A stretch of DNA of 64,000 bases from Turneriella sp. (GTDB lineage Bacteria > Spirochaetota > Leptospiria > Turneriellales > Turneriellaceae). Numbering within the stretch: position 1 is the stretch's first letter; every line of letters starts with the position of its first letter. The translations under genes were made by a program, and so were the position numbers. Positions 1-47,168 of the stretch are shown in pieces. Under the pieces are notes generated by a model. The model saw only the letters and a list, made by a program, of their open reading frames with translations, had not been told where the DNA came from and did no database searches. Location: the NCBI GenBank assembly GCA_965279515.1, contig CBDIID010000003.1, positions 4,768,001 to 4,832,000 of the forward strand. Reading direction: 5' to 3'.

Positions 1-451
1 GTAGCCCGGGAATCTTCACCAGGTCATCGCCGCGCACGGTGCCGCGGCATAACTTTGTACCACAACGGCATTTGAGCTCAAAATCGGAGCGGGATTCGCT
101 GGTGGCATAGTCGTAGGTAATTTCTTCTTCCGGTAAAATACTGCGTAGCGCAGTCATCGAACCATCTGCCTCGAACCAGGTGTTGGGATCACAACTGTGG
201 TTCATATAGTCGGCGTCGTCGCCGGCCTTGCCGTTGGGTGAGCCATAGAACTGGTCGGGACCGACCTGGTAACAATAATTGTAAAAATTCTTTTTTTGTT
301 CTGCGGGCAGCGCATCGATTTCGGCCTGCGTATAGTACTTCTCATCCGGCTCTTTGCGCCAGATAAAATCCCCCTGGTTGATTGGCCCCTTAGCAAACAA
401 CCCGCGGCCGTGGGTATCGCTGCCGCGAACTTCGATGTTGGGATTAAGCAT
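1..451 (-). CDS. SET-domain protein-lysine methyltransferase (3' end runs off the window)
   Basis: Not in ORF track. Manual translation from ATG at 451: MLNPNIEVRGSDTHGRGLFAKGPI...YMNHSCDPN...EEITYDY...CRCGTKLCRG, containing the GxGxFA, NHSCxPN, E[L/I]TYDY and post-SET CxCxxxxC motifs. Confidence 0.9.
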   Translation of the reverse strand, partial: MLNPNIEVRGSDTHGRGLFAKGPINQGDFIWRKEPDEKYYTQAEIDALPAEQKKNFYNYCYQVGPDQFYGSPNGKAGDDADYMNHSCDPNTWFEADGSMTALRSILPEEEITYDYATSESRSDFELKCRCGTKLCRGTVRGDDLVKIPGL

Positions 452-500
452 GGTTCAGGGATGAACCGAGTATAGCGCTGACACGGAGGTAATCCATGCG

Positions 501-1097
501 CTACGCATGCGCGACGCGCATTGTTTCGTTGCGGTGCTGCATTTCGACGGTGTGAAAGAGATCGTAAGGATTCGCCATGCCGGCCGAGCGGATGACGAAA
601 TCGGGCACCATGCCGAGTTGAATATACTTTTGCTGCAGCGGCGCCGGGATATACTTGAAATCGCGCACGCGTGAACGGCAAGAAGGAACGCCGCAGGCGC
701 AGTCCATTTCCCAGTGCTCTTCAGCCATCGATGTCGAGTAGTCGAAAGTGATTTCCTGCTCTACAGCGATGGTATTGACGGCGACTAAGAATGCCTTACC
801 TTTGTGGATTTTCAGTGCCGCGTTGGGTTCGCAGCAGTGATTGACGAAGTTGTCTGGCGATGTCGTCGGGCCGAGAAACATATCTTCACCTATTTGCATG
901 TAATGGCATTTTTCGGGATTAACCTTGCTCAGGTATTCCTTGCGGGTGTAGATTCTGCCGCGAAACTGCAAAATCTTCTCACCGGGTTTGAATTCTTTTT
1001 TGGCGAAAACACCTTTCCCGAACCGGGTAGGTCGAACCTCCAGCGGAGGTTCGCCGGTCGCCGCGGTGGCGGGGGCCGGAGTAGTTGTGGTCGTCAT
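501..1097 (-). CDS. SET-domain protein-lysine methyltransferase with post-SET zinc motif
   Basis: GKGVFA, VNHCCEPN, EITFDY, CACGVPSCR. Start moved to ATG 1097 (GAGG SD upstream); ORF track starts at 1142. Confidence 0.9.
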   Translation of the reverse strand: MTTTTTPAPATAATGEPPLEVRPTRFGKGVFAKKEFKPGEKILQFRGRIYTRKEYLSKVNPEKCHYMQIGEDMFLGPTTSPDNFVNHCCEPNAALKIHKGKAFLVAVNTIAVEQEITFDYSTSMAEEHWEMDCACGVPSCRSRVRDFKYIPAPLQQKYIQLGMVPDFVIRSAGMANPYDLFHTVEMQHRNETMRVAHA

Positions 1098-9074: not shown

Positions 9075-11042
9075 ATGTCGAAAACTCCGTTTTGGCTAAC
9101 GATGCGCCATTTGCCCGATGTCTTTGCCGCCTCGGCCCAAAAATTCCCCGGGCAGGGCTTTTATTCCAAAGATTCGCATAAATTCTTCAAGCCGACGCCT
9201 TTTTCTTCCTTATACAAGACGGCTTCTGCATTTGCGATCCATCTCATTCAAGGCGGATTAAAACCGGGTGACCGGGTGGCGCTCTTCGGCGATAATTCGG
9301 CCGAGTGGCTGATCGCCGACATGGCGATCCAGATGGCGGGGGCGATTGTCGTGCCGCGCGGCTCTGATTCGACGCCGCAGGAACTCGAATTTATCCTGAA
9401 CCATGCCGAGGCCGGTCTCGTCTTTATCGAACACTGGCGGCTCTATAAGAAGATTGCGCCAGCGCTGAAAAAGCGCGGCGCGAAAGTCTACATTCTCGAC
9501 GCCGATTTTCCGCAGAAAACGGCGGCCGACGACAAACTCGTCATTTTGCCGGAGCTTCTTAAAACCATCCCAGCGAGTACTGCGACCGACGACAAGCTGC
9601 TGGCAGAGCTGCGCGCGCAGATTCTGCCGTCAGATCTCTTCACGATCATATATACCTCAGGTACAACCGGCGAACCCAAGGGTGTGATGCTCTCGCATGC
9701 CAACATGATGTACCAGCTGGAGATCGCGCCGAAAAACCTCGGCATGTCGCCGGCCGACCGCATCCTGTCGATTCTGCCGGTCTGGCATATCTTCGAGCGC
9801 TTTATGCTCTACAGTGTGATCTATGCGGGTTCGCATTATTTTTATTCGAACAAAAAAGACCTGATGGAAGATTTTGTCCGCGTGAAACCCACGCTGATGG
9901 CTTCGGCGCCGCGGCTGTGGGAGCAAATTTACCAGAAGCTGCGTGAACGCATCGACAAGACTGAGGCATTTAACCGCGAACTCTTCGATCTCTCTTATGG
10001 CATCAAACAGCGGCTGCACCGCGCTGAAAATATTGTCAACGGGCAGAGTGCCGAAACCAAAGAGCAGGGCTTCGTGGCGGGCATCGTTGAGTCTTTCACA
10101 GCGGGGCTGACAGCGCTCGGGCTTAAAGCCCCCGATGGTTATATGGATTCGATCTTTCTCGTGCGCGTGCGCGCGATGCTGGGCGGCGAGCTGCGCGGTA
10201 CCATCTCGGGCGGCGGCGCGTTGCCGATCCATATCGACGAATTTTTTAACGCCATCGGCATCCCCGTGTACGAAGGTTATGGCATGACCGAATGTTCTCC
10301 GCTGATTTCGATGCGTGTGCCGGGGAAGGTCATTACCGGCACCGTCGGCTTCGTGCCTGAAAAGACAGTGGTCGAAATCCGCGGCGACGACGGTGTGCGC
10401 ATTTTGCCTGCGGGTGAACCCGGTGTGATCTTCGTTAAGGGGCCCGGCGTGATGAAGGGCTATTATAAAAACGGTGATGCGACGCTCAAGGTTTTAAAAG
10501 ATGGTTGGATGAACACCGGCGATATCGGTGTCTTCACGAAGAGCGGCCAGCTCGCGATCCGCGGTCGCGCGAAAGATACCATCGTGCTGCGCTCGGGCGA
10601 GAATCTAGAGCCCGTGCCGATTGAAACCCTGCTCGCGCAGCATCCGCTCATTGAGCAGGCCGTCGTCGTGGGGCAGGACCAGAAGAATCTAGGCGTACTC
10701 ATCTGGCCGGAATATGACAAGCTCATCGATGCGGGTTATGATGTGAAGGAATTCGATTTAAAAAATGATCTCAACACCATGCCCGCACTCATTGCGATCT
10801 TCAAAGAAATCACCAGCGACCTCATTAAAGAAGAAAACGGTTTCAAAGGCTTTGAGCGTATCAGCCACGTGCGTTTTCTGCCCGCGAAACTCATGGTCGG
10901 CGAAGAGCTCACGGCGCTGATGAAGATCAAACGCAATGTCGTGCATCAAAAATACGCGCCGCTGATCGAAGGGATGTTTAAGGAGTCGGCACGGACCTCC
11001 CTGTCCGCCGACTCCACGGTACCTCCTGTACCCATGGATTAA
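9075..11042 (+). CDS. fadD: Long-chain fatty acid--CoA ligase
   Basis: IIYTSGTTGEPKGVMLSH, YEGYGMTE, GWMNTGDIG, GRAKD. Confidence 0.92.
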   Translation: MSKTPFWLTMRHLPDVFAASAQKFPGQGFYSKDSHKFFKPTPFSSLYKTASAFAIHLIQGGLKPGDRVALFGDNSAEWLIADMAIQMAGAIVVPRGSDSTPQELEFILNHAEAGLVFIEHWRLYKKIAPALKKRGAKVYILDADFPQKTAADDKLVILPELLKTIPASTATDDKLLAELRAQILPSDLFTIIYTSGTTGEPKGVMLSHANMMYQLEIAPKNLGMSPADRILSILPVWHIFERFMLYSVIYAGSHYFYSNKKDLMEDFVRVKPTLMASAPRLWEQIYQKLRERIDKTEAFNRELFDLSYGIKQRLHRAENIVNGQSAETKEQGFVAGIVESFTAGLTALGLKAPDGYMDSIFLVRVRAMLGGELRGTISGGGALPIHIDEFFNAIGIPVYEGYGMTECSPLISMRVPGKVITGTVGFVPEKTVVEIRGDDGVRILPAGEPGVIFVKGPGVMKGYYKNGDATLKVLKDGWMNTGDIGVFTKSGQLAIRGRAKDTIVLRSGENLEPVPIETLLAQHPLIEQAVVVGQDQKNLGVLIWPEYDKLIDAGYDVKEFDLKNDLNTMPALIAIFKEITSDLIKEENGFKGFERISHVRFLPAKLMVGEELTALMKIKRNVVHQKYAPLIEGMFKESARTSLSADSTVPPVPMD

Positions 11043-19457: not shown

Positions 19458-20072
19458 ATGCCCGATGTGCTGCATGAATCCAAACTGTATTTCAATTCCC
19501 GCCTGGCCGATTGTATGCCATCGCCGCATCTGCACAGCGAGCAGATCAAGGTTTATAACCAATACATCGCCGTCTTAAACAATTCAACGAGCCCCGAAGA
19601 TTACCGGCAAAAACTCGGGCCGCTCGCGAGCATGTTTGCCGTCGCGCGCGCCGAGCAGGTGGATAAATATTTGAACCTGATGCGGCTCTACCAGAAGCTG
19701 GGAAATCCCGATAAGCTTAAGGCCGCGAAACTGCGTTATGACACCGCCGTCGCCGCACAGAACCATGGTGATCTCGTGAACCTCATGAGCACCGCGCAGA
19801 CGAGCGCTGCTGATATCGAAGCCGGCGGGCACCAGAAACTGAGCCTGGCTGTGACGCTGATCCAATGCCTGCTTGTATACATGACTGAACCCGAAGCGCC
19901 TGACAAAAAGGGCTCGCTCGCAGGAATTCTGACAACTTACACCGATCTTCTCAAGCTCGACCCGACTTTTAAATGGGAGTCGTATAAAGAAACGCCGTAT
20001 TCTTATATCGTATTTTTCGATGCGGAGCGCATGGCGCAGTTAGGCGAGGTCTTCATGGAGGCGACGGCATGA
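19458..20072 (+). CDS. Hypothetical alpha-helical protein
   Basis: Long ORF; ATG 19458 lies 33 nt after TTGACG. Confidence 0.7.
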   Translation: MPDVLHESKLYFNSRLADCMPSPHLHSEQIKVYNQYIAVLNNSTSPEDYRQKLGPLASMFAVARAEQVDKYLNLMRLYQKLGNPDKLKAAKLRYDTAVAAQNHGDLVNLMSTAQTSAADIEAGGHQKLSLAVTLIQCLLVYMTEPEAPDKKGSLAGILTTYTDLLKLDPTFKWESYKETPYSYIVFFDAERMAQLGEVFMEATA

Positions 20073-20074
20073 GA

Positions 20075-20121
20075 GCACATCCTGTGCGCCGTCGCCCCGG
20101 TGCATCCTGCACCACGGGGCG
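20075..20121. repeat. Two ATCCT/AGGAT-loop hairpins (relative of the 45.3-45.5 kb array)
   Basis: GCAC-ATCCT-GTGC and CGCCCCG-GTGC-ATCCT-GCAC-CA-CGGGGCG. Confidence 0.7.
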
Positions 20122-42654: not shown

Positions 42655-42742
42655 ACATTGCATCGCATTTTACCGGGGCTGCTGGCTAAGGAGTCAGGGG
42701 GCGGAGCGGTCGCCCGAGCAGCGCGTAAAATTTGCTGTCTGC
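42655..42742 (-). repeat. Degenerate attC-like site
   Basis: 42718..42742 matches 43575..43599 at 21/25; internal inverted pairs ATTTTAC/GTAAAAT and GCTGCT/AGCAGC; core AAC/GTT triplets appear mutated. Confidence 0.55.
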
Positions 42743-42813
42743 TACGGTCACGAAGGACCTTGAGAAAATTGAGAATATTGTCTTTCGCGCTTCAGTCGAG
42801 ACGCTGCCCTTTT

Positions 42814-43359
42814 TCAGAGCTTGTGAACCATTACATGACGCCTTGTTCCTGCCATCCTCAGAAATTTAAACTTTGCCTTTGCAAAAGTTTGCTTAAAACC
42901 CATAAACCTATAACTGGGTGAACTTGGTTCGACGGGATAAGCCTCTAAGAATTTTGCACCGTTGCTTTTGGCATATTTCTTAGCATGGTGTACCAGGATA
43001 TCCACATATCCACGATCTCTATACTCTTTCTTTATGAAGAAGCATGCAATGGACCAAGTAGGTGTCAAGCTCTCATCACCACCAAGGCGTTCATATGTAT
43101 CCCTCGGTGCAATGGAGCACCATGCGACTGGTTTAGCATCTACATAGCCAAGCAAGCCGATCGGTATCCCGGCCTGAACGCGTTTTCTTATGAATTTCTT
43201 GCGGTTCGGGGACGTATTTTTCTTGAGCTCCTCTTTGGTCATTCTCCAGGCCATGCACCAGCAATAGCTGGGTGCCCCTTTTGAACGAAACAGAGCATCG
43301 AAATCGGCCCACGTTGAGGAATCTACTGCTTTGACAGCGAGTGGCTGAACAACGGACAT
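42814..43359 (-). CDS. GNAT family N-acetyltransferase (cassette 3)
   Basis: CWCMAWR, VAWCSIAPR, WSIACFFIKKEYRDRG, LEAYP. Confidence 0.88.
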   Translation of the reverse strand: MSVVQPLAVKAVDSSTWADFDALFRSKGAPSYCWCMAWRMTKEELKKNTSPNRKKFIRKRVQAGIPIGLLGYVDAKPVAWCSIAPRDTYERLGGDESLTPTWSIACFFIKKEYRDRGYVDILVHHAKKYAKSNGAKFLEAYPVEPSSPSYRFMGFKQTFAKAKFKFLRMAGTRRHVMVHKL

Positions 43360-43488
43360 AATTTTTGCCTAAATTTCCAGAAACTTGCGGGAAATCTTTT
43401 TTCGGTCACTTAGTTTATCCAAAGAAGTGCCCTATTAGGATTAGTTCGGCGGCATGGCAGCCGCCGAGTAGCATTGCGCAACCATGAG

Positions 43489-43597
43489 CGCCAACGTGGA
43501 TTTGACGCTGGTGTCATTTTTTCAATCTGGAAAGCCGATTTGCGTCAAGAAACGTGGTCGTAGCGAGTCGCGGCGCAGCGCTTAAAATTTGTTAGCT
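43489..43597 (-). repeat. attC-like site (short form)
   Basis: Minus strand AGCTAAC (contains the upstream gene's stop) ... TTGACGC/GCGTCAA hairpin ... TCCACGTTGGCG. Confidence 0.7.
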
Positions 43598-44251
43598 GCC
43601 GTATTTTTTTCGTTTTTTGAGACTTTTGGGCATGCGTGCCCAAAGTACGGTTTGTCGAATCAGGCTTTCTGCGCTGCCTTTTGAATCAGCGGTGCTGCCA
43701 ACAATTGAAGCTGGTAAGAATCTGAACCCTGGGCCTAAATCCGTGTGATTGGTAGTACTGATCTCCAAAGTGTTACCGCCTTCATCGGATATTAGCTCAA
43801 TATTCGTGACTTGCTTTAGGGGTAATGTAGTTGATCGACCTTTCCTAACTACATAAAGATTGTCAGCATCTAAGAAGACATCTGGGATATCTTTATGCCT
43901 TCGAAGAAAAATTACGAAGGCAAAAATCGTGATAATGACAAAGGCGCCGGAGGCTAAATTAATCCCTTGGTGCCATACAATGTTCGCGCTTACCAAAACT
44001 AAAATTACCGTCATAATCGGGATAAAGAAACTCCGCTGAAAAGCGCTCGCGCTCGACGAAACCCGAAGTCGGTTTTTTAGCGGCAAGTCCTGAGTAAGAG
44101 CCCACTTCTTGAGTGCCGTTAGGACCATAGCGTGTCTCTTGGGCAATCGGCTGGGGTCGATTTGCTCGGCTAATTCTTGTAGCTCCGGTTGAGTTTTAGT
44201 CTCTAAATAAGCCCAATACTCGATATCGGTATCAATTTTTCTTAAAGCCAT
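43592..44251 (-). CDS. Hypothetical two-TM membrane protein (cassette 2)
   Basis: Two TMs then a beta-rich domain; ATG about 21 nt after the GTT core; stop inside GCTAAC. Confidence 0.75.
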   Translation of the reverse strand: MALRKIDTDIEYWAYLETKTQPELQELAEQIDPSRLPKRHAMVLTALKKWALTQDLPLKNRLRVSSSASAFQRSFFIPIMTVILVLVSANIVWHQGINLASGAFVIITIFAFVIFLRRHKDIPDVFLDADNLYVVRKGRSTTLPLKQVTNIELISDEGGNTLEISTTNHTDLGPGFRFLPASIVGSTADSKGSAESLIRQTVLWARMPKSLKKRKKYGS

Positions 44252-44265
44252 ATTAAAAATATGTC

Positions 44266-44539
44266 AGCCAACGTGGAACTTATCTGGGGTTGAGTGACGC
44301 TTCGTTCAACTTTGTGTTCTGTAAAGCCATTTTGCGTCACTCAATCTGCCCGGAGCGCCTCTGAAGGCAGAGACTCGCCTACGGCTCGTCGCGCGGCAAA
44401 GCACAAAACAAGCGTCCCGCTTGTGCTTTGTCCGCGATCTTTGGCGCGTAGGGCCGGGCATGCGCGACCCGTCTTCGGGTCTCTGCCTTCAGAGGAGCCA
44501 CGGCACCGCAGCGAGCGCAGCAGGTAAATTTTGTTAGGC
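44266..44539 (-). repeat. Long branched attC-like site (274 bp)
   Basis: GCCTAAC-AAAAT-TTACCTG ... CAGATAA-GTTCCAC-GTTGGCT ends; internal 17-bp (44358..44495) and 11-bp (44290..44344) stems. Confidence 0.8.
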
Positions 44540-44563
44540 GCAGTTTTTCTTGGCCACCATGGC

Positions 44564-44755
44564 TCAATTTAAAGCAGATTTGGCTTTAACAGGGGTTGCA
44601 TATTTAAATTTCAAGCCGTATTGTTTCTCGATGGTCTTCACAAATTCAGCATTATCTTGCTCAAGCTTAGCAAAATCATAATCAGCCAGTTTCGTGATTT
44701 GCCGGATTGTTTCGTGCTTAGTCTGTATAATCACATCATCTTTCTGCATATTCAC
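44564..44755 (-). CDS. Small protein coupled to the PIN gene, putative antitoxin
   Basis: 63 aa; start overlaps the PIN stop; DDVII...IRQ...ADYDFAKL pattern. Confidence 0.6.
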   Translation of the reverse strand: MNMQKDDVIIQTKHETIRQITKLADYDFAKLEQDNAEFVKTIEKQYGLKFKYATPVKAKSALN

Positions 44756-45219
44756 CCTCCGTTCTCGAACAGCTCTAATGGGGATATTATACCCGGGGTT
44801 GTCAAACCCAATTTAGCGTTTATCCGCGAGATATGTATGCGTTTGTTTACGTTCACCAAATGGCTGAAATTCCATGAGAGTAGGTAATCAAATTCGTAAA
44901 ATGACGCATAAGCCAGATGGATTGCGTCGCCGCCTTCTTCCTGCGGCATCAAATAATTCTCTACGTAAATCTTGGCAATTTCTTCAATTCGGCTGTGGGG
45001 CGTTAATAGCTTTAAAGTTGCGGCTTCAGCTAGAATTCGATCTTTTCGAGGATAGTTTCCAACCCCCAACTCTCGGATAATTTCAGGAGAAATATAACAA
45101 TCGAATTTTGGCCTTTGGTCAAGCCACCATAGCTTTGTCTGCTTGATGAGATAATTCAAATCAGGTCGTTCATCATGCAGATAGCTCAGAATCGTTGAGT
45201 CAAGATAAACTGTTTTCAT
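44752..45219 (-). CDS. PIN-domain (VapC-like) ribonuclease (cassette 1)
   Basis: MKTVYLDSTILS, ISPEIIREL, GDAIHLAYA, DYLLSWNFSHL. Start ATG 45219. Confidence 0.9.
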   Translation of the reverse strand: MKTVYLDSTILSYLHDERPDLNYLIKQTKLWWLDQRPKFDCYISPEIIRELGVGNYPRKDRILAEAATLKLLTPHSRIEEIAKIYVENYLMPQEEGGDAIHLAYASFYEFDYLLSWNFSHLVNVNKRIHISRINAKLGLTTPGIISPLELFENGG

Positions 45220-45316
45220 TAGAATTGGGAGCAGCCTTCCTACTTGCGAAAAATATCCATGAAACAGGCGGCCAAGAAAAATTGCGCCTAACACCTATTA
45301 CCTGAAAAACTGTGCC

Positions 45317-45503
45317 GTCGTTCCCCGACACCTTACTAAATCGCAAAGATGCCATCCATGGCAGCGATTTAGTCCGTAGCCTCATGCTACCTGGAAACCA
45401 CAAGGACGACCTCCTGTCGGTGGTTTCTCAGTGACCTCCTGTCACCTGACAAATCCGCAAAGATGGCCTCCTGCCAGCGGATTTGTGCGTAACATCCTGT
45501 TAC
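45317..45503 (-). ncRNA. Candidate structured RNA: periodic array of seven hairpins with GGA-type loops
   Basis: Minus-strand loops AGGAU, AGGAG x3, AUGAG, AUGGAU, GGGAA on perfectly paired, sequence-divergent stems. Expression not shown. Confidence 0.55.
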
Positions 45504-46420
45504 CGCACAATAATCCGAAAAATAAATGGCACGATTAGCATGCCGTTCTCTAATAGCTCTTTCGGCGGTGGGCCGAAGTCGTGTGCCGCGTAGAGCGCCT
45601 CGATGCAAGAGCGGTCCAGGGATTGAAATCCTAATGAGGAAACGAGCTTCGCGTCGCGCACTACACCCTGGTCATCGAGCAGAAACTGGATGTAGATGTC
45701 CTGGCTCGGGAATGTAGCGAAGCGGGTATAACCAGACGCATGCCCCATGCGGTGGTAAGAATCGCCGAAAGTCGGGTAGGGGTCGCCGCCCGGCGGCGCC
45801 CAGACATTCTGGATCTTATTCACCATCGAGCGGAAATAACTGTAATGCGCATAACGCGCCGTCGGTATCGCAGGCCGGCCGGCATAGTCCCACGACAGGG
45901 CGAAATCGTTCCGCCAGCGGTAATACGCCGGTATGCGCATACGCTCTGTCGGAGTCTGTGGTTCGGCCTGCTGTTTTTCCGCGATGGTAATCCGCGTTCG
46001 GCCTTCTTTGGATGTCAGAATCTTTGCGTATTTTTTCGCCGAGACGATGCGCGCCTGCACGCTTTGTTTTTGCCCCGGCGAGAGGACATAGTCATTGGAG
46101 ATCGACTCAAAACCCTTTTCTTTCGTGAGGTCGCCGCGTGCTTCAGAGTCTTTGTCAGACAGGAATTTCACTGTAGAGCGTTTCTTCTTTTTCTCAATGT
46201 AGGTGTTTTCGAGCAGCGCCCGGATAATCTGGTCGCCGCTGACCTGGCTCTTTTCAGATTCGCCGAAAATGAGGTTCCTGAGGTCGAGCTCGAGGTAGAG
46301 GCTCAGCAGTATGCAGAGCGAGAGCAGCGCGGAGAAAAAACGCGCAAATGCGGCGTCAGAAATCCGCTTCGACGGGGTCGAATTTACCGCGTTTTCGGAT
46401 GATGCTTTCGCGAAGGTCAT
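45500..46420 (-). CDS. TonB C-terminal domain protein
   Basis: N-terminal TM; YFRSMVNKIQNVW, SSLGFQSLDRSCIEAL, FGPPP. Confidence 0.8.
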   Translation of the reverse strand: MTFAKASSENAVNSTPSKRISDAAFARFFSALLSLCILLSLYLELDLRNLIFGESEKSQVSGDQIIRALLENTYIEKKKKRSTVKFLSDKDSEARGDLTKEKGFESISNDYVLSPGQKQSVQARIVSAKKYAKILTSKEGRTRITIAEKQQAEPQTPTERMRIPAYYRWRNDFALSWDYAGRPAIPTARYAHYSYFRSMVNKIQNVWAPPGGDPYPTFGDSYHRMGHASGYTRFATFPSQDIYIQFLLDDQGVVRDAKLVSSLGFQSLDRSCIEALYAAHDFGPPPKELLENGMLIVPFIFRIIVR

Positions 46421-47168
46421 TTATAGCCTTATCAACGCCTGTGCCAGCCCGCTTCAGGTGCAGGTCGACGAGGGTGAGGGCTGTCGTATAGTCATTTACG
46501 GCCGCCGTTACCCTTGCACAATTTAATAAATATCGCGGGAGGCGGCTTTTTTGCCAGTCAACCTTGGTACAGAGCTTGGCCGCCGACTTGCCGTCCTTAA
46601 GTTCCAGGGCATAGAGCCTCAGCAGAAAATATTCGGTCTCTTCGTCGCCGGCATGCGTTTCGAGGTAAGCCGTCACAACTTCGCGTGCACGGTCTTTTTC
46701 CTTGAGTTGCAGGTAGATCTGCGCCATACGCCGCAGCGTCACGCCGTCGACGGTGCGCATCGCGCCGGAAATTTTGGACAGGTTTTGCAGCGTCTCGTCC
46801 CGGTCTTTGCGTTTGGAGCTGATTTCGGCAATACGCACAAGCGCGCGCACGCGGTATTTTTCCTTGAGGTCACCCTGTTGTACCGCCTGTTTCAGCATGG
46901 TGAGCGCGATGTCTTCGGTGATCTGTTCTTCAGAGAGCAGCATGCCTTTGCCGTAAAGCGCAAGGGCTTCCTGCGCATTGCTCCTCAGCGCGCGGTCGAA
47001 GAGTTCCAGTGCAGAGGTCTGTTTGCCCTGTTCGAGGCGGAGCAGGCCCTCTTCGGAGAGGGCGCGCGCGCGGCCGCAGCCGCTGCACACGATTAAACAG
47101 AGGGCGAGGACGGGCGCCAGGGCGCCAAGGCCAGTTTTTCTTTTTCCAATGCCGGGATCGTCGATCAC
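46356..47168 (-). CDS. TPR-containing lipoprotein
   Basis: LIVCSGC lipobox-like segment, helical TPR pattern. Confidence 0.7.
   Translation of the reverse strand: MIDDPGIGKRKTGLGALAPVLALCLIVCSGCGRARALSEEGLLRLEQGKQTSALELFDRALRSNAQEALALYGKGMLLSEEQITEDIALTMLKQAVQQGDLKEKYRVRALVRIAEISSKRKDRDETLQNLSKISGAMRTVDGVTLRRMAQIYLQLKEKDRAREVVTAYLETHAGDEETEYFLLRLYALELKDGKSAAKLCTKVDWQKSRLPRYLLNCARVTAAVNDYTTALTLVDLHLKRAGTGVDKAINDLRESIIRKRGKFDPVEADF

Follow-up and report, generated by a model that had tools for sequence, protein, structure and literature searches.

The hairpin array that follows a TonB-family gene in the window, as we call the whole stretch of 64,000 nucleotides of Turneriella sp. DNA that was analysed, is real and non-random. 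In the explanation that we favour, with somewhat better than even confidence, it consists of three tandem copies of a non-coding, mobile two-hairpin element of about 57 nt (here termed the doublet), and where its CA(N)GGANG loops lie on a transcript, as is predicted for this array, a CsrA dimer would likely attach to them. The copies belong to a dispersed family with a covarying fold, for which filled and empty sites, in-frame insertions into genes, a CC core at most junctions and a strand bias of the copies shared between species were observed directly.

All seven hairpins that a preceding sequence-only reading had listed are present letter for letter, and six of them do carry GGA in their minus-strand loops. 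The repeat itself accounts for six of the seven, which form three tandem units arranged head-to-tail on the minus strand (45505-45335; 57, 55 and 59 nt), each folding as a short hairpin followed by a long one that carries a bulge of 5 nt on its 3' side; the loop consensus of the doublet is CA(N)GGANG. Unit 1 (45449..45505, minus strand, 57 nt) has the loops AGGAU in the short and AGGAG in the long bulged hairpin, scores 47.2 bits as a member of the model training set, and overlaps with its short hairpin the stop codon (45502-45500) of the TonB-family gene. Unit 2 (45394..45448, minus strand, 55 nt) displays AGGAG twice, and unit 3 (45335..45393, minus strand, 59 nt) combines AUGAG, a loop without GGA, with AUGGAU. 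The seventh hairpin (45331-45312) does not belong to the repeat; with its GGGAA loop and U-rich tail (45302..45331, minus strand) it is terminator-like by score and consensus match only, and the transcript of the TonB-family gene is predicted to end there. This gene (45500..46420, minus strand) encodes a protein with a TonB C-terminal domain (PF03544, E 1e-4, below the cut-off; TIGR01352 at the cut-off) and is the last of an ABC-transporter/TPR gene run. Three solitary doublets are found elsewhere in the window (445..509, plus strand, 47.7 bits; 10979..11039, minus strand, 37.7 bits; 20057..20120, minus strand, 45.8 bits).

The region 45290-45530 folds far more stably than shuffled sequence (z -5.4 on the minus and -6.6 on the plus strand, with 0/200 shuffles on each strand), and since the fold is strong beyond chance on both strands, folding energy does not pick the strand. 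Contigs of the public runs X1 and X4, which may be the source sample, span the array with zero letter differences; the runs X5 and X6, each with a small share, did not extend across it. A sigma-70-like promoter was not detected in 45100-45900, and an Rfam scan of 44000-47000 gave one chance match and none to a Csr/Rsm family. At the corresponding TonB site, doublet units are present in 4/12 genus relatives, in the same orientation and in varying number, and absent in 8/12. In six loci at the 3' end of the TonB-family gene that lack a doublet (L004, L005, L008, L009, L011, L013), other perfect palindromes fill the site, and their arms copy the last bases of the gene. These palindromes suggest a hairpin hot spot combined with template switching.

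The family to which the array belongs is large. This genome holds 179 intergenic hairpins whose loop is CA(N)GGANG, against a median of 14 over the 64 possible central triplets, and a descriptor of the full two-hairpin arrangement returned 67 doublets versus 0, 2, 1 and 0 with four permuted loops. The covariance-model search of the genome and its relatives that the sequence-only reading had recommended was carried out with a model trained on 47 copies from this genome, which match by construction; it yielded at least 94 doublet matches at 87 loci here (a lower bound, as 150 of 1761 candidates were scored) and 35-96 matches in each of the 13/13 genus relatives. Among 27 genomes from outside the genus, six hold 3-6 model matches and 21 none. 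The exact doublet pattern was matched 33 times in the genome_contigs collection, of which eight matches fell in spirochaete records and the others were scattered singletons; viral contigs gave two matches. Relatives also contain tandems with exact 54-59-nt periods at unrelated sites, some of them similar to or longer than the array in the window. Literature searches on Turneriella repeats, CsrA-linked hairpin repeats and in-frame palindromes of Leptospira, which covered few subscription papers, returned no description of this element.

What the copies have in common is the C-G closing pair, the 5-nt bulge and the two-loop geometry, with a spacing within the doublet of 25-26 nt in 57 of 67 cases. 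In an alignment of 44 model matches, mostly from relatives, that had been fitted to the structure before pairing was counted, 93% of the cells are paired and 15 of the 17 pairs show double-sided changes; orthologous copies swap stem pairs and keep the loops. Two GGA loops are present in 124 of 198 family units, one in 64 and none in 10, and loops of the type CA(C/U)GANG, which lack GGA, make up 53/209 first and 39/209 second loops (about 21% overall). Copies at different sites are so dissimilar (mean 0.48, maximum 0.88) that a recent burst is not indicated. The proposal that the GGA strand is the meaningful one was borne out with a strand-neutral descriptor, by which G-T versus A-C mismatches stand at 60:32 on that strand (p 0.005). 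Pairing between the bulges and the loops, a further proposal from the letters alone, found no support: UC(C/U) starts only 91/153 bulges, and the covariation of the bulge with the variable loop base is 0.29 versus 0.31-0.34 after shuffling.

The doublet is mobile, as filled and empty orthologous sites and in-frame insertions demonstrate. All four genes examined (4/4) contain an in-frame insertion of 17-19 amino acids that is missing from some or all orthologues. In RecG, an 18-aa doublet insertion is missing in 3/5 orthologues and two hold other inserts; AroA has a 17-aa insertion relative to its closest orthologue; a DUF4139 protein carries 19 amino acids that are missing in 5/5 orthologues, and in an unnamed protein a 19-aa insertion is common to 1/3 orthologues. 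Core enzymes, RecG and AroA among them, receive peptides of 17-19 amino acids through doublet insertion. When 26 loci of the relative G001 were compared with the present genome (G000), 23 had collinear flanks, and clean indels of 54-57 nt were seen in at least six loci (L120, L150, L156, L158, L160, L165). For 116 sites from three relatives that were mapped by both flanks, the site in G000 is empty in 58 cases, filled in 17 and unclear in 41.

In the clearest filled/empty pairs (L120, L158, L165) the insert is preceded by CC and has CC as its last two bases, either of which can pair with the GG that separates the two hairpins; the flank profile likewise shows the CC core at most junctions. Foot and target covary across 89 solitary copies at independent sites: with a GG foot the last left base is C in 42/61, and with an AG foot it is T in 6/12 and C in 2 (p 0.001). 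Beyond the core, the microhomology at the junctions amounts to 1.75 vs 1.49 of 6 positions upstream and 2.03 vs 1.66 of 6 downstream. We discarded the general rule that a long target duplication makes up the outer stem, because only the CC core is regular and the extra matching is weak, though significant. Template switching is a later process that could also yield foot-target matching. In several genomes, doublets are located at tRNA-like 3' ends, at a CC before the last bases (G000:C3:1513065-1513302; L153). The match between foot and target resembles the guide-selected dinucleotide cutting of TnpA-REP, for which the portion of PMC8266576 available to us describes cleavage at CT, at a site possibly chosen by an internal guide.

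Searches for Y1/RAYT enzymes, IS110, RT and tyrosine recombinases found no mobilising enzyme. G000 contains no RAYT-like gene and a single IS200-type Y1 gene with no doublets beside it; over 29 Y1 loci, one weak doublet match was recorded. IS110 as mobiliser gave 0/14, and RT gave 6/14 with no candidate. Two integron-like tyrosine recombinases were rejected because their distribution does not follow that of the doublet; one of them is found in 11/13 genus relatives but also in 11/27 other genomes, and the second in 7/13.

By gene calls from a purpose-written script rather than a standard annotation, 44 of the 87 loci lie inside coding sequence (31 sense, 13 antisense), loci between co-directional genes comprise 14 sense and 17 antisense copies, and 5 are convergent and 7 divergent. 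About 40% of the oriented doublet sites are antisense, and among copies just before start codons the antisense orientation is commoner (19 vs 10). No replichore or lagging-strand bias was apparent (30/67 doublets). To assess the copies shared between species, we placed the sites of G001, G002 and G011 onto G000; 146 out of 151 could be mapped, which gave 184 sites; 35 of these are common to at least two genomes, 34 of them in a single orientation. Shared sites between co-directional genes comprised 15 sense vs 1 antisense before two rows were dropped, namely the TonB site (convergent in relatives) and one mixed-orientation site. After these exclusions, shared intergenic copies stand at 13 sense vs 1 antisense, and unique copies at 19 vs 28 (p 6e-4). 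Inside genes a sense bias is absent or weak (shared, 9 sense vs 5 antisense; unique, 51 vs 31), and GGA is about as frequent in sense (107/136) as in antisense copies (72/88; p 0.61).

This intergenic sense bias is a first sign of filtering by the direction of transcription. We infer that it reflects selection on the transcript; purging of harmful antisense copies, SD-like GGAGG loops or hot-spot reinsertion could produce it as well. According to the sequence-only reading, many copies in random orientation would have pointed to a DNA-level repeat, and the doublets are indeed dispersed and occur in both orientations, but the sense bias of the shared intergenic copies departs from this expectation. 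A REP-like repeat is the closest of the alternatives offered there, though the preferential retention of sense copies argues against an element that acts purely at the level of DNA.

The genome does encode CsrA, whose presence the sequence-only reading had asked to be checked: csrA, with Arg44 kept, lies in a flgN-flgK-flgL-fliW-csrA run. As csrA is found in 41/41 genomes and only a single genus has the doublet in abundance, the co-occurrence of the two is uninformative and cannot explain the restriction to the genus. In one leader, that of a gene which, to judge from a flagellin motif, would encode flagellin, two CANGGANG sites lie 26 nt apart, the same spacing as in the doublet. CsrA bridges sites that are 10-63 nt apart and prefers ANGGAN loops, according to the accessible part of PMC7652899, and the CsrA protein of Leptospira binds GGA hexaloops (PMC8668096, as far as its text was available). 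The doublet loops match the CsrA consensus, and on a transcript they would likely be bound by a CsrA dimer. A sense doublet is positioned in frame around codon 8 of the predicted flgN, with which the csrA operon starts (G000:C3:3202907-3202971; L169, L261); a doublet is present at the flgN 5' end in each of the four genomes under comparison, with stems that differ between them, and possibly provides feedback on CsrA. Flagellin leaders at G000:C3:3984739-3984955 and 3508290-3508336 carry CAAGGAAG hairpins together with ACGGAGG sites that overlap the SD sequence, and in three genomes an opposite-strand doublet is located just upstream of one flagellin leader.

Downstream of the array, a block of three integron-like cassettes (a PIN pair, a membrane protein and a GNAT protein, closed by attC-like sites) occupies 42700-45292 of the window. 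It starts at a G|TTAGGCGC junction (45284..45292, minus strand), a neighbour outside the repeat about 20 nt past the terminal hairpin, which, judged from the matching GCCTAAC end at about 44533, would be the crossover point. The PIN/VapC-like cassette (44564..45219, minus strand; unrelated to the array) combines the PIN gene (45219-44752) with a 61-aa partner gene (44749-44564); PIN look-alikes of the former were found in the Atlas (score 0.96), and Pfam, NCBIfam and PDB searches were blank. An attC-like site (44258..44548, minus strand; 168.9 bits against a purpose-built profile) closes this cassette, and another (43478..43600, minus strand) closes the second, whose gene (44251-43592) has its stop codon in the GCTAAC box. 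The block sits between the TonB-family gene and transketolase, with a GTT junction, far from any recombinase, and is absent in the 13 relative loci. Only 3/67 doublets, all in the array of the window, lie within 1.5 kb of an attC-like site, and the adjacency of array and cassettes is probably due to chance. The genome as a whole contains about 150 attC-like matches.

Single hairpins present a different relation to cassettes. In the large integron-like arrays at G000:C3 (around 93-171 kb and 3.73-3.81 Mb), single CANGGANG hairpins stand at cassette ends, on one strand only. Hairpins with the doublet-type loop flank 66/136 attC-like sites on one strand and 0 on the other; the gene is on the GGA strand in hairpin-bearing cassettes in 31 vs 9 cases, and in hairpin-free cassettes in 4 vs 54. 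Such hairpins mark inverted cassettes whose gene is on the GGA strand, and may be a clue to the formation or expression of cassettes. The only reverse-transcriptase match in the genome (G000:C3:1300966-1301448) adjoins an attC-like site and a GGA hairpin, and an identical hairpin-bearing stretch is found twice on the small contig C1 (G000:C1:9302 and a 32783-like match).

The favoured explanation, in which we infer guide-like insertion, selection on transcripts and CsrA binding, can be phrased as a sequence of steps. The unit would move as a folded single strand or a small circle and would enter, via a putative mobilising enzyme, at a CC (or CT) core whose counterpart in the unit is the GG (or AG) that separates the two hairpins. 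Tandems might then arise by slippage or by recombination between matching ends, and the stems might be kept paired in part by template switching. Intergenic insertion would be blind to the direction of transcription, and selection on the transcript would subsequently retain the sense copies. CsrA would act as the reader on RNA, and the copies jointly would form a distributed sponge of low valency or an mRNA-stabilising tag rather than one CsrB-like gene.

Against this stands the possible, but in our estimate unlikely, explanation that the doublet is a purely selfish DNA repeat, with loops that serve a mobilising protein as its recognition site on single-stranded DNA (as TnpA-REP reads REPs) and with a likeness to CsrA targets that is incidental. 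The random orientation of species-specific intergenic copies (19 vs 28), the equally intact loops of antisense copies, the common non-GGA loop variant that also exists in Bacillaceae-1, the strand-specific presence of the same loop beside 66/136 attC-like sites, and the resemblance of the foot-matched core to guide-selected CT cleavage by TnpA-REP (in the accessible text of PMC8266576) all speak for such a repeat. The strong sense bias of the shared intergenic copies (13 vs 1) and the position of the loops on the sense strand of the gene in hairpin-bearing cassettes (31 vs 9; hairpin-free 4 vs 54) are hard to reconcile with it; furthermore, a cognate HUH enzyme was not found by the searches described above, and the doublets lack replichore bias (30/67). 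Retention of sense copies in intercistronic gaps would also be expected if GGAGG/GGAUG loops and stable stems affected translation or decay directly, as an SD-like standby site or as a barrier to exonucleases (as for REPs), with CsrA uninvolved, and several copies with strong stems do end at or near a start codon. We nevertheless regard this as improbable, given that it leaves unexplained why the two-loop geometry is fixed and why the C-G closing pair and the 5-nt bulge are kept, and that the antisense orientation prevails (19 vs 10) among copies directly ahead of start codons.

The remaining alternatives concern the locus in the window itself. The sequence-only reading preferred a CsrA sponge derived from the 3' UTR, and a part of this stands: the array probably lies in a 3' UTR before a terminator-like hairpin, and its loops are of the CsrA type. 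A dedicated, processed 3'-UTR sRNA that sponges CsrA at this locus, in the manner of CsrB or RsmY/Z, is nonetheless very improbable in our view. It would accord with six GGA loops in about 190 nt that are sense to the upstream gene and end in a terminator-like hairpin, with units at the TonB site of 4/12 genus relatives in the same orientation, and with the reported absence of csrB/csrC homologues from Leptospira (PMC8668096, in the part available). It is at odds with a site that is empty in 8/12 genus relatives and variable in unit number, with the lack of a sigma-70-like promoter in 45100-45900 and of an Rfam Csr/Rsm match, and with similar or longer tandems at unrelated sites in other species; what occupies the locus is a dispersed mobile repeat. 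The idea that the array RNA acts as a type III-like antitoxin of the PIN nuclease encoded downstream, suggested by the tandem repeats and by the adjacent PIN gene on the same strand, has a probability close to nil. A separate cassette bounded by attC-like sites contains the PIN gene along with a small partner gene of its own, and type III toxins are not known to be PIN proteins. The PIN gene is found in 0/13 relative loci, and transketolase lies there instead, within the fetched flank in 13/13 and following the array in the four with units at the TonB site, which removes the idea.

We put forward the following generalization as a speculation that we ourselves hold to be rather doubtful. Minimal mobile elements without ends of fixed sequence would select the core at which they insert through its pairing with a foot inside the element, and would carry a bivalent CsrA site. 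Their spread into operons and onto inverted integron-like cassettes would connect new transcripts to the CsrA network, in place of the CsrB-type sRNAs that are missing from the phylum. If this were true, the orphan motifs Bacillaceae-1 and TwoAYGGAY would be accounted for by the same machinery, which might also contribute to the formation of cassettes. Read by CsrA, the doublet would offer a route for the RNA buffering of CsrA in spirochaetes, where only FliW is described.

Among known RNA families, the nearest to the doublet is, by layout and loops, Bacillaceae-1 (RF01690) read in reverse. Its reverse complement has the same layout, a short hairpin and then a long one whose internal loop is larger on the 3' side, and carries CAGGA(U/C)G in both loops, a CACGAUG variant and several copies per genome, as does the doublet. 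The Bacillaceae-1 model aligns in full length (1-67) to the doublet on the non-GGA strand, and the seed rows (PMC2864571, supplement 5, part 192, in the portion available) show loops of the (A/G)UCCUG type. The two differ in phylum and have unrelated stems. One of 13 loci reached 23.6 bits against a gathering score of 35, and a genome-wide search, with 150 of 663 candidates scored, gave 0 matches over the cut-off and a best score of 22.5 bits. In the text examined from PMC2864571 and PMC4333381, mobility, in-frame insertion and a junction rule are not mentioned for Bacillaceae-1. The same part of the supplement lists, just before Bacillaceae-1, a multi-copy motif with a long bulged and a short hairpin and CAUCCAUG-type loops. 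CsrA binding has been proposed, in the accessible part of PMC4333381, for the reverse strand of Bacillaceae-1 and for TwoAYGGAY (RF01731). The latter resembles the doublet in that two hairpins with A(N)GGA loops follow one another and copy number varies widely, and the available part of a preprint (bioRxiv 10.64898/2026.09.22.753630) proposes for it a Csr/Rsm sponge and a spread like that of mobile elements. The doublet, in contrast, lacks the long or common basal stem and the extension, measures 57 nt rather than about 168, and forms head-to-tail tandems where TwoAYGGAY forms divergent doublets; the best match to the TwoAYGGAY model was partial, with 24.4 bits against a 43-bit cut-off. CsrB/CsrC and RsmX/Y/Z share with the array the repeated CANGGANG hairpin loops that fit the ANGGAN consensus, but these sRNAs are separately transcribed from a single locus, whereas the doublet is a mobile two-loop unit without an Rfam match; instead of a conserved single locus with its own transcription unit, we found 87 loci, a site that is empty in 8/12 relatives, and no promoter-like site.

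With respect to the way it spreads, the doublet works like a repeat of the RPE/REP type, but it lacks a RAYT partner, a GTAG foot and terminal repeats. The Rickettsia palindromic elements (RPE) are palindromic repeats inserted in frame, on either strand, into housekeeping genes. In-frame insertion into genes, absent from orthologues, is shared by the doublet in 4/4 genes and further pairs; the doublet is, however, much shorter (17-19 codons), its stems are hypervariable between copies, and its loops are of the CsrA type. With the REP/BIME sequences and their TnpA-REP (RAYT; the accessible text of PMC8266576) the doublet has in common that short palindromes are dispersed, form tandem arrays, show strand-specific hairpin features and would have a dinucleotide cut site that an internal guide possibly selects. 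It differs from REPs in its CC flank profile in place of a GTAG foot, in the conservation of loops instead of stems, in the location of half of its loci inside predicted genes, and in that no cognate RAYT gene flanked by repeats was found in G000. A DDE-type MITE was discarded, since the ends of the doublet are not inverted repeats and only the 2-nt core recurs, with weak additional microhomology. The TD-1 and TD-2 motifs of Treponema denticola (PMC1950547, in the portion available) are likewise multi-copy, covarying hairpins of a spirochaete, and Rfam searches at E up to 5-10 gave no match of either to the stretch in the window or to 13 loci. For orphan motifs with two GGA hairpins, such as Bacillaceae-1 and TwoAYGGAY, a role as CsrA sponges and, of late, a mobile-like nature had been suggested before; the doublet family supplies direct evidence of its own mobility from filled and empty sites, together with a junction rule.
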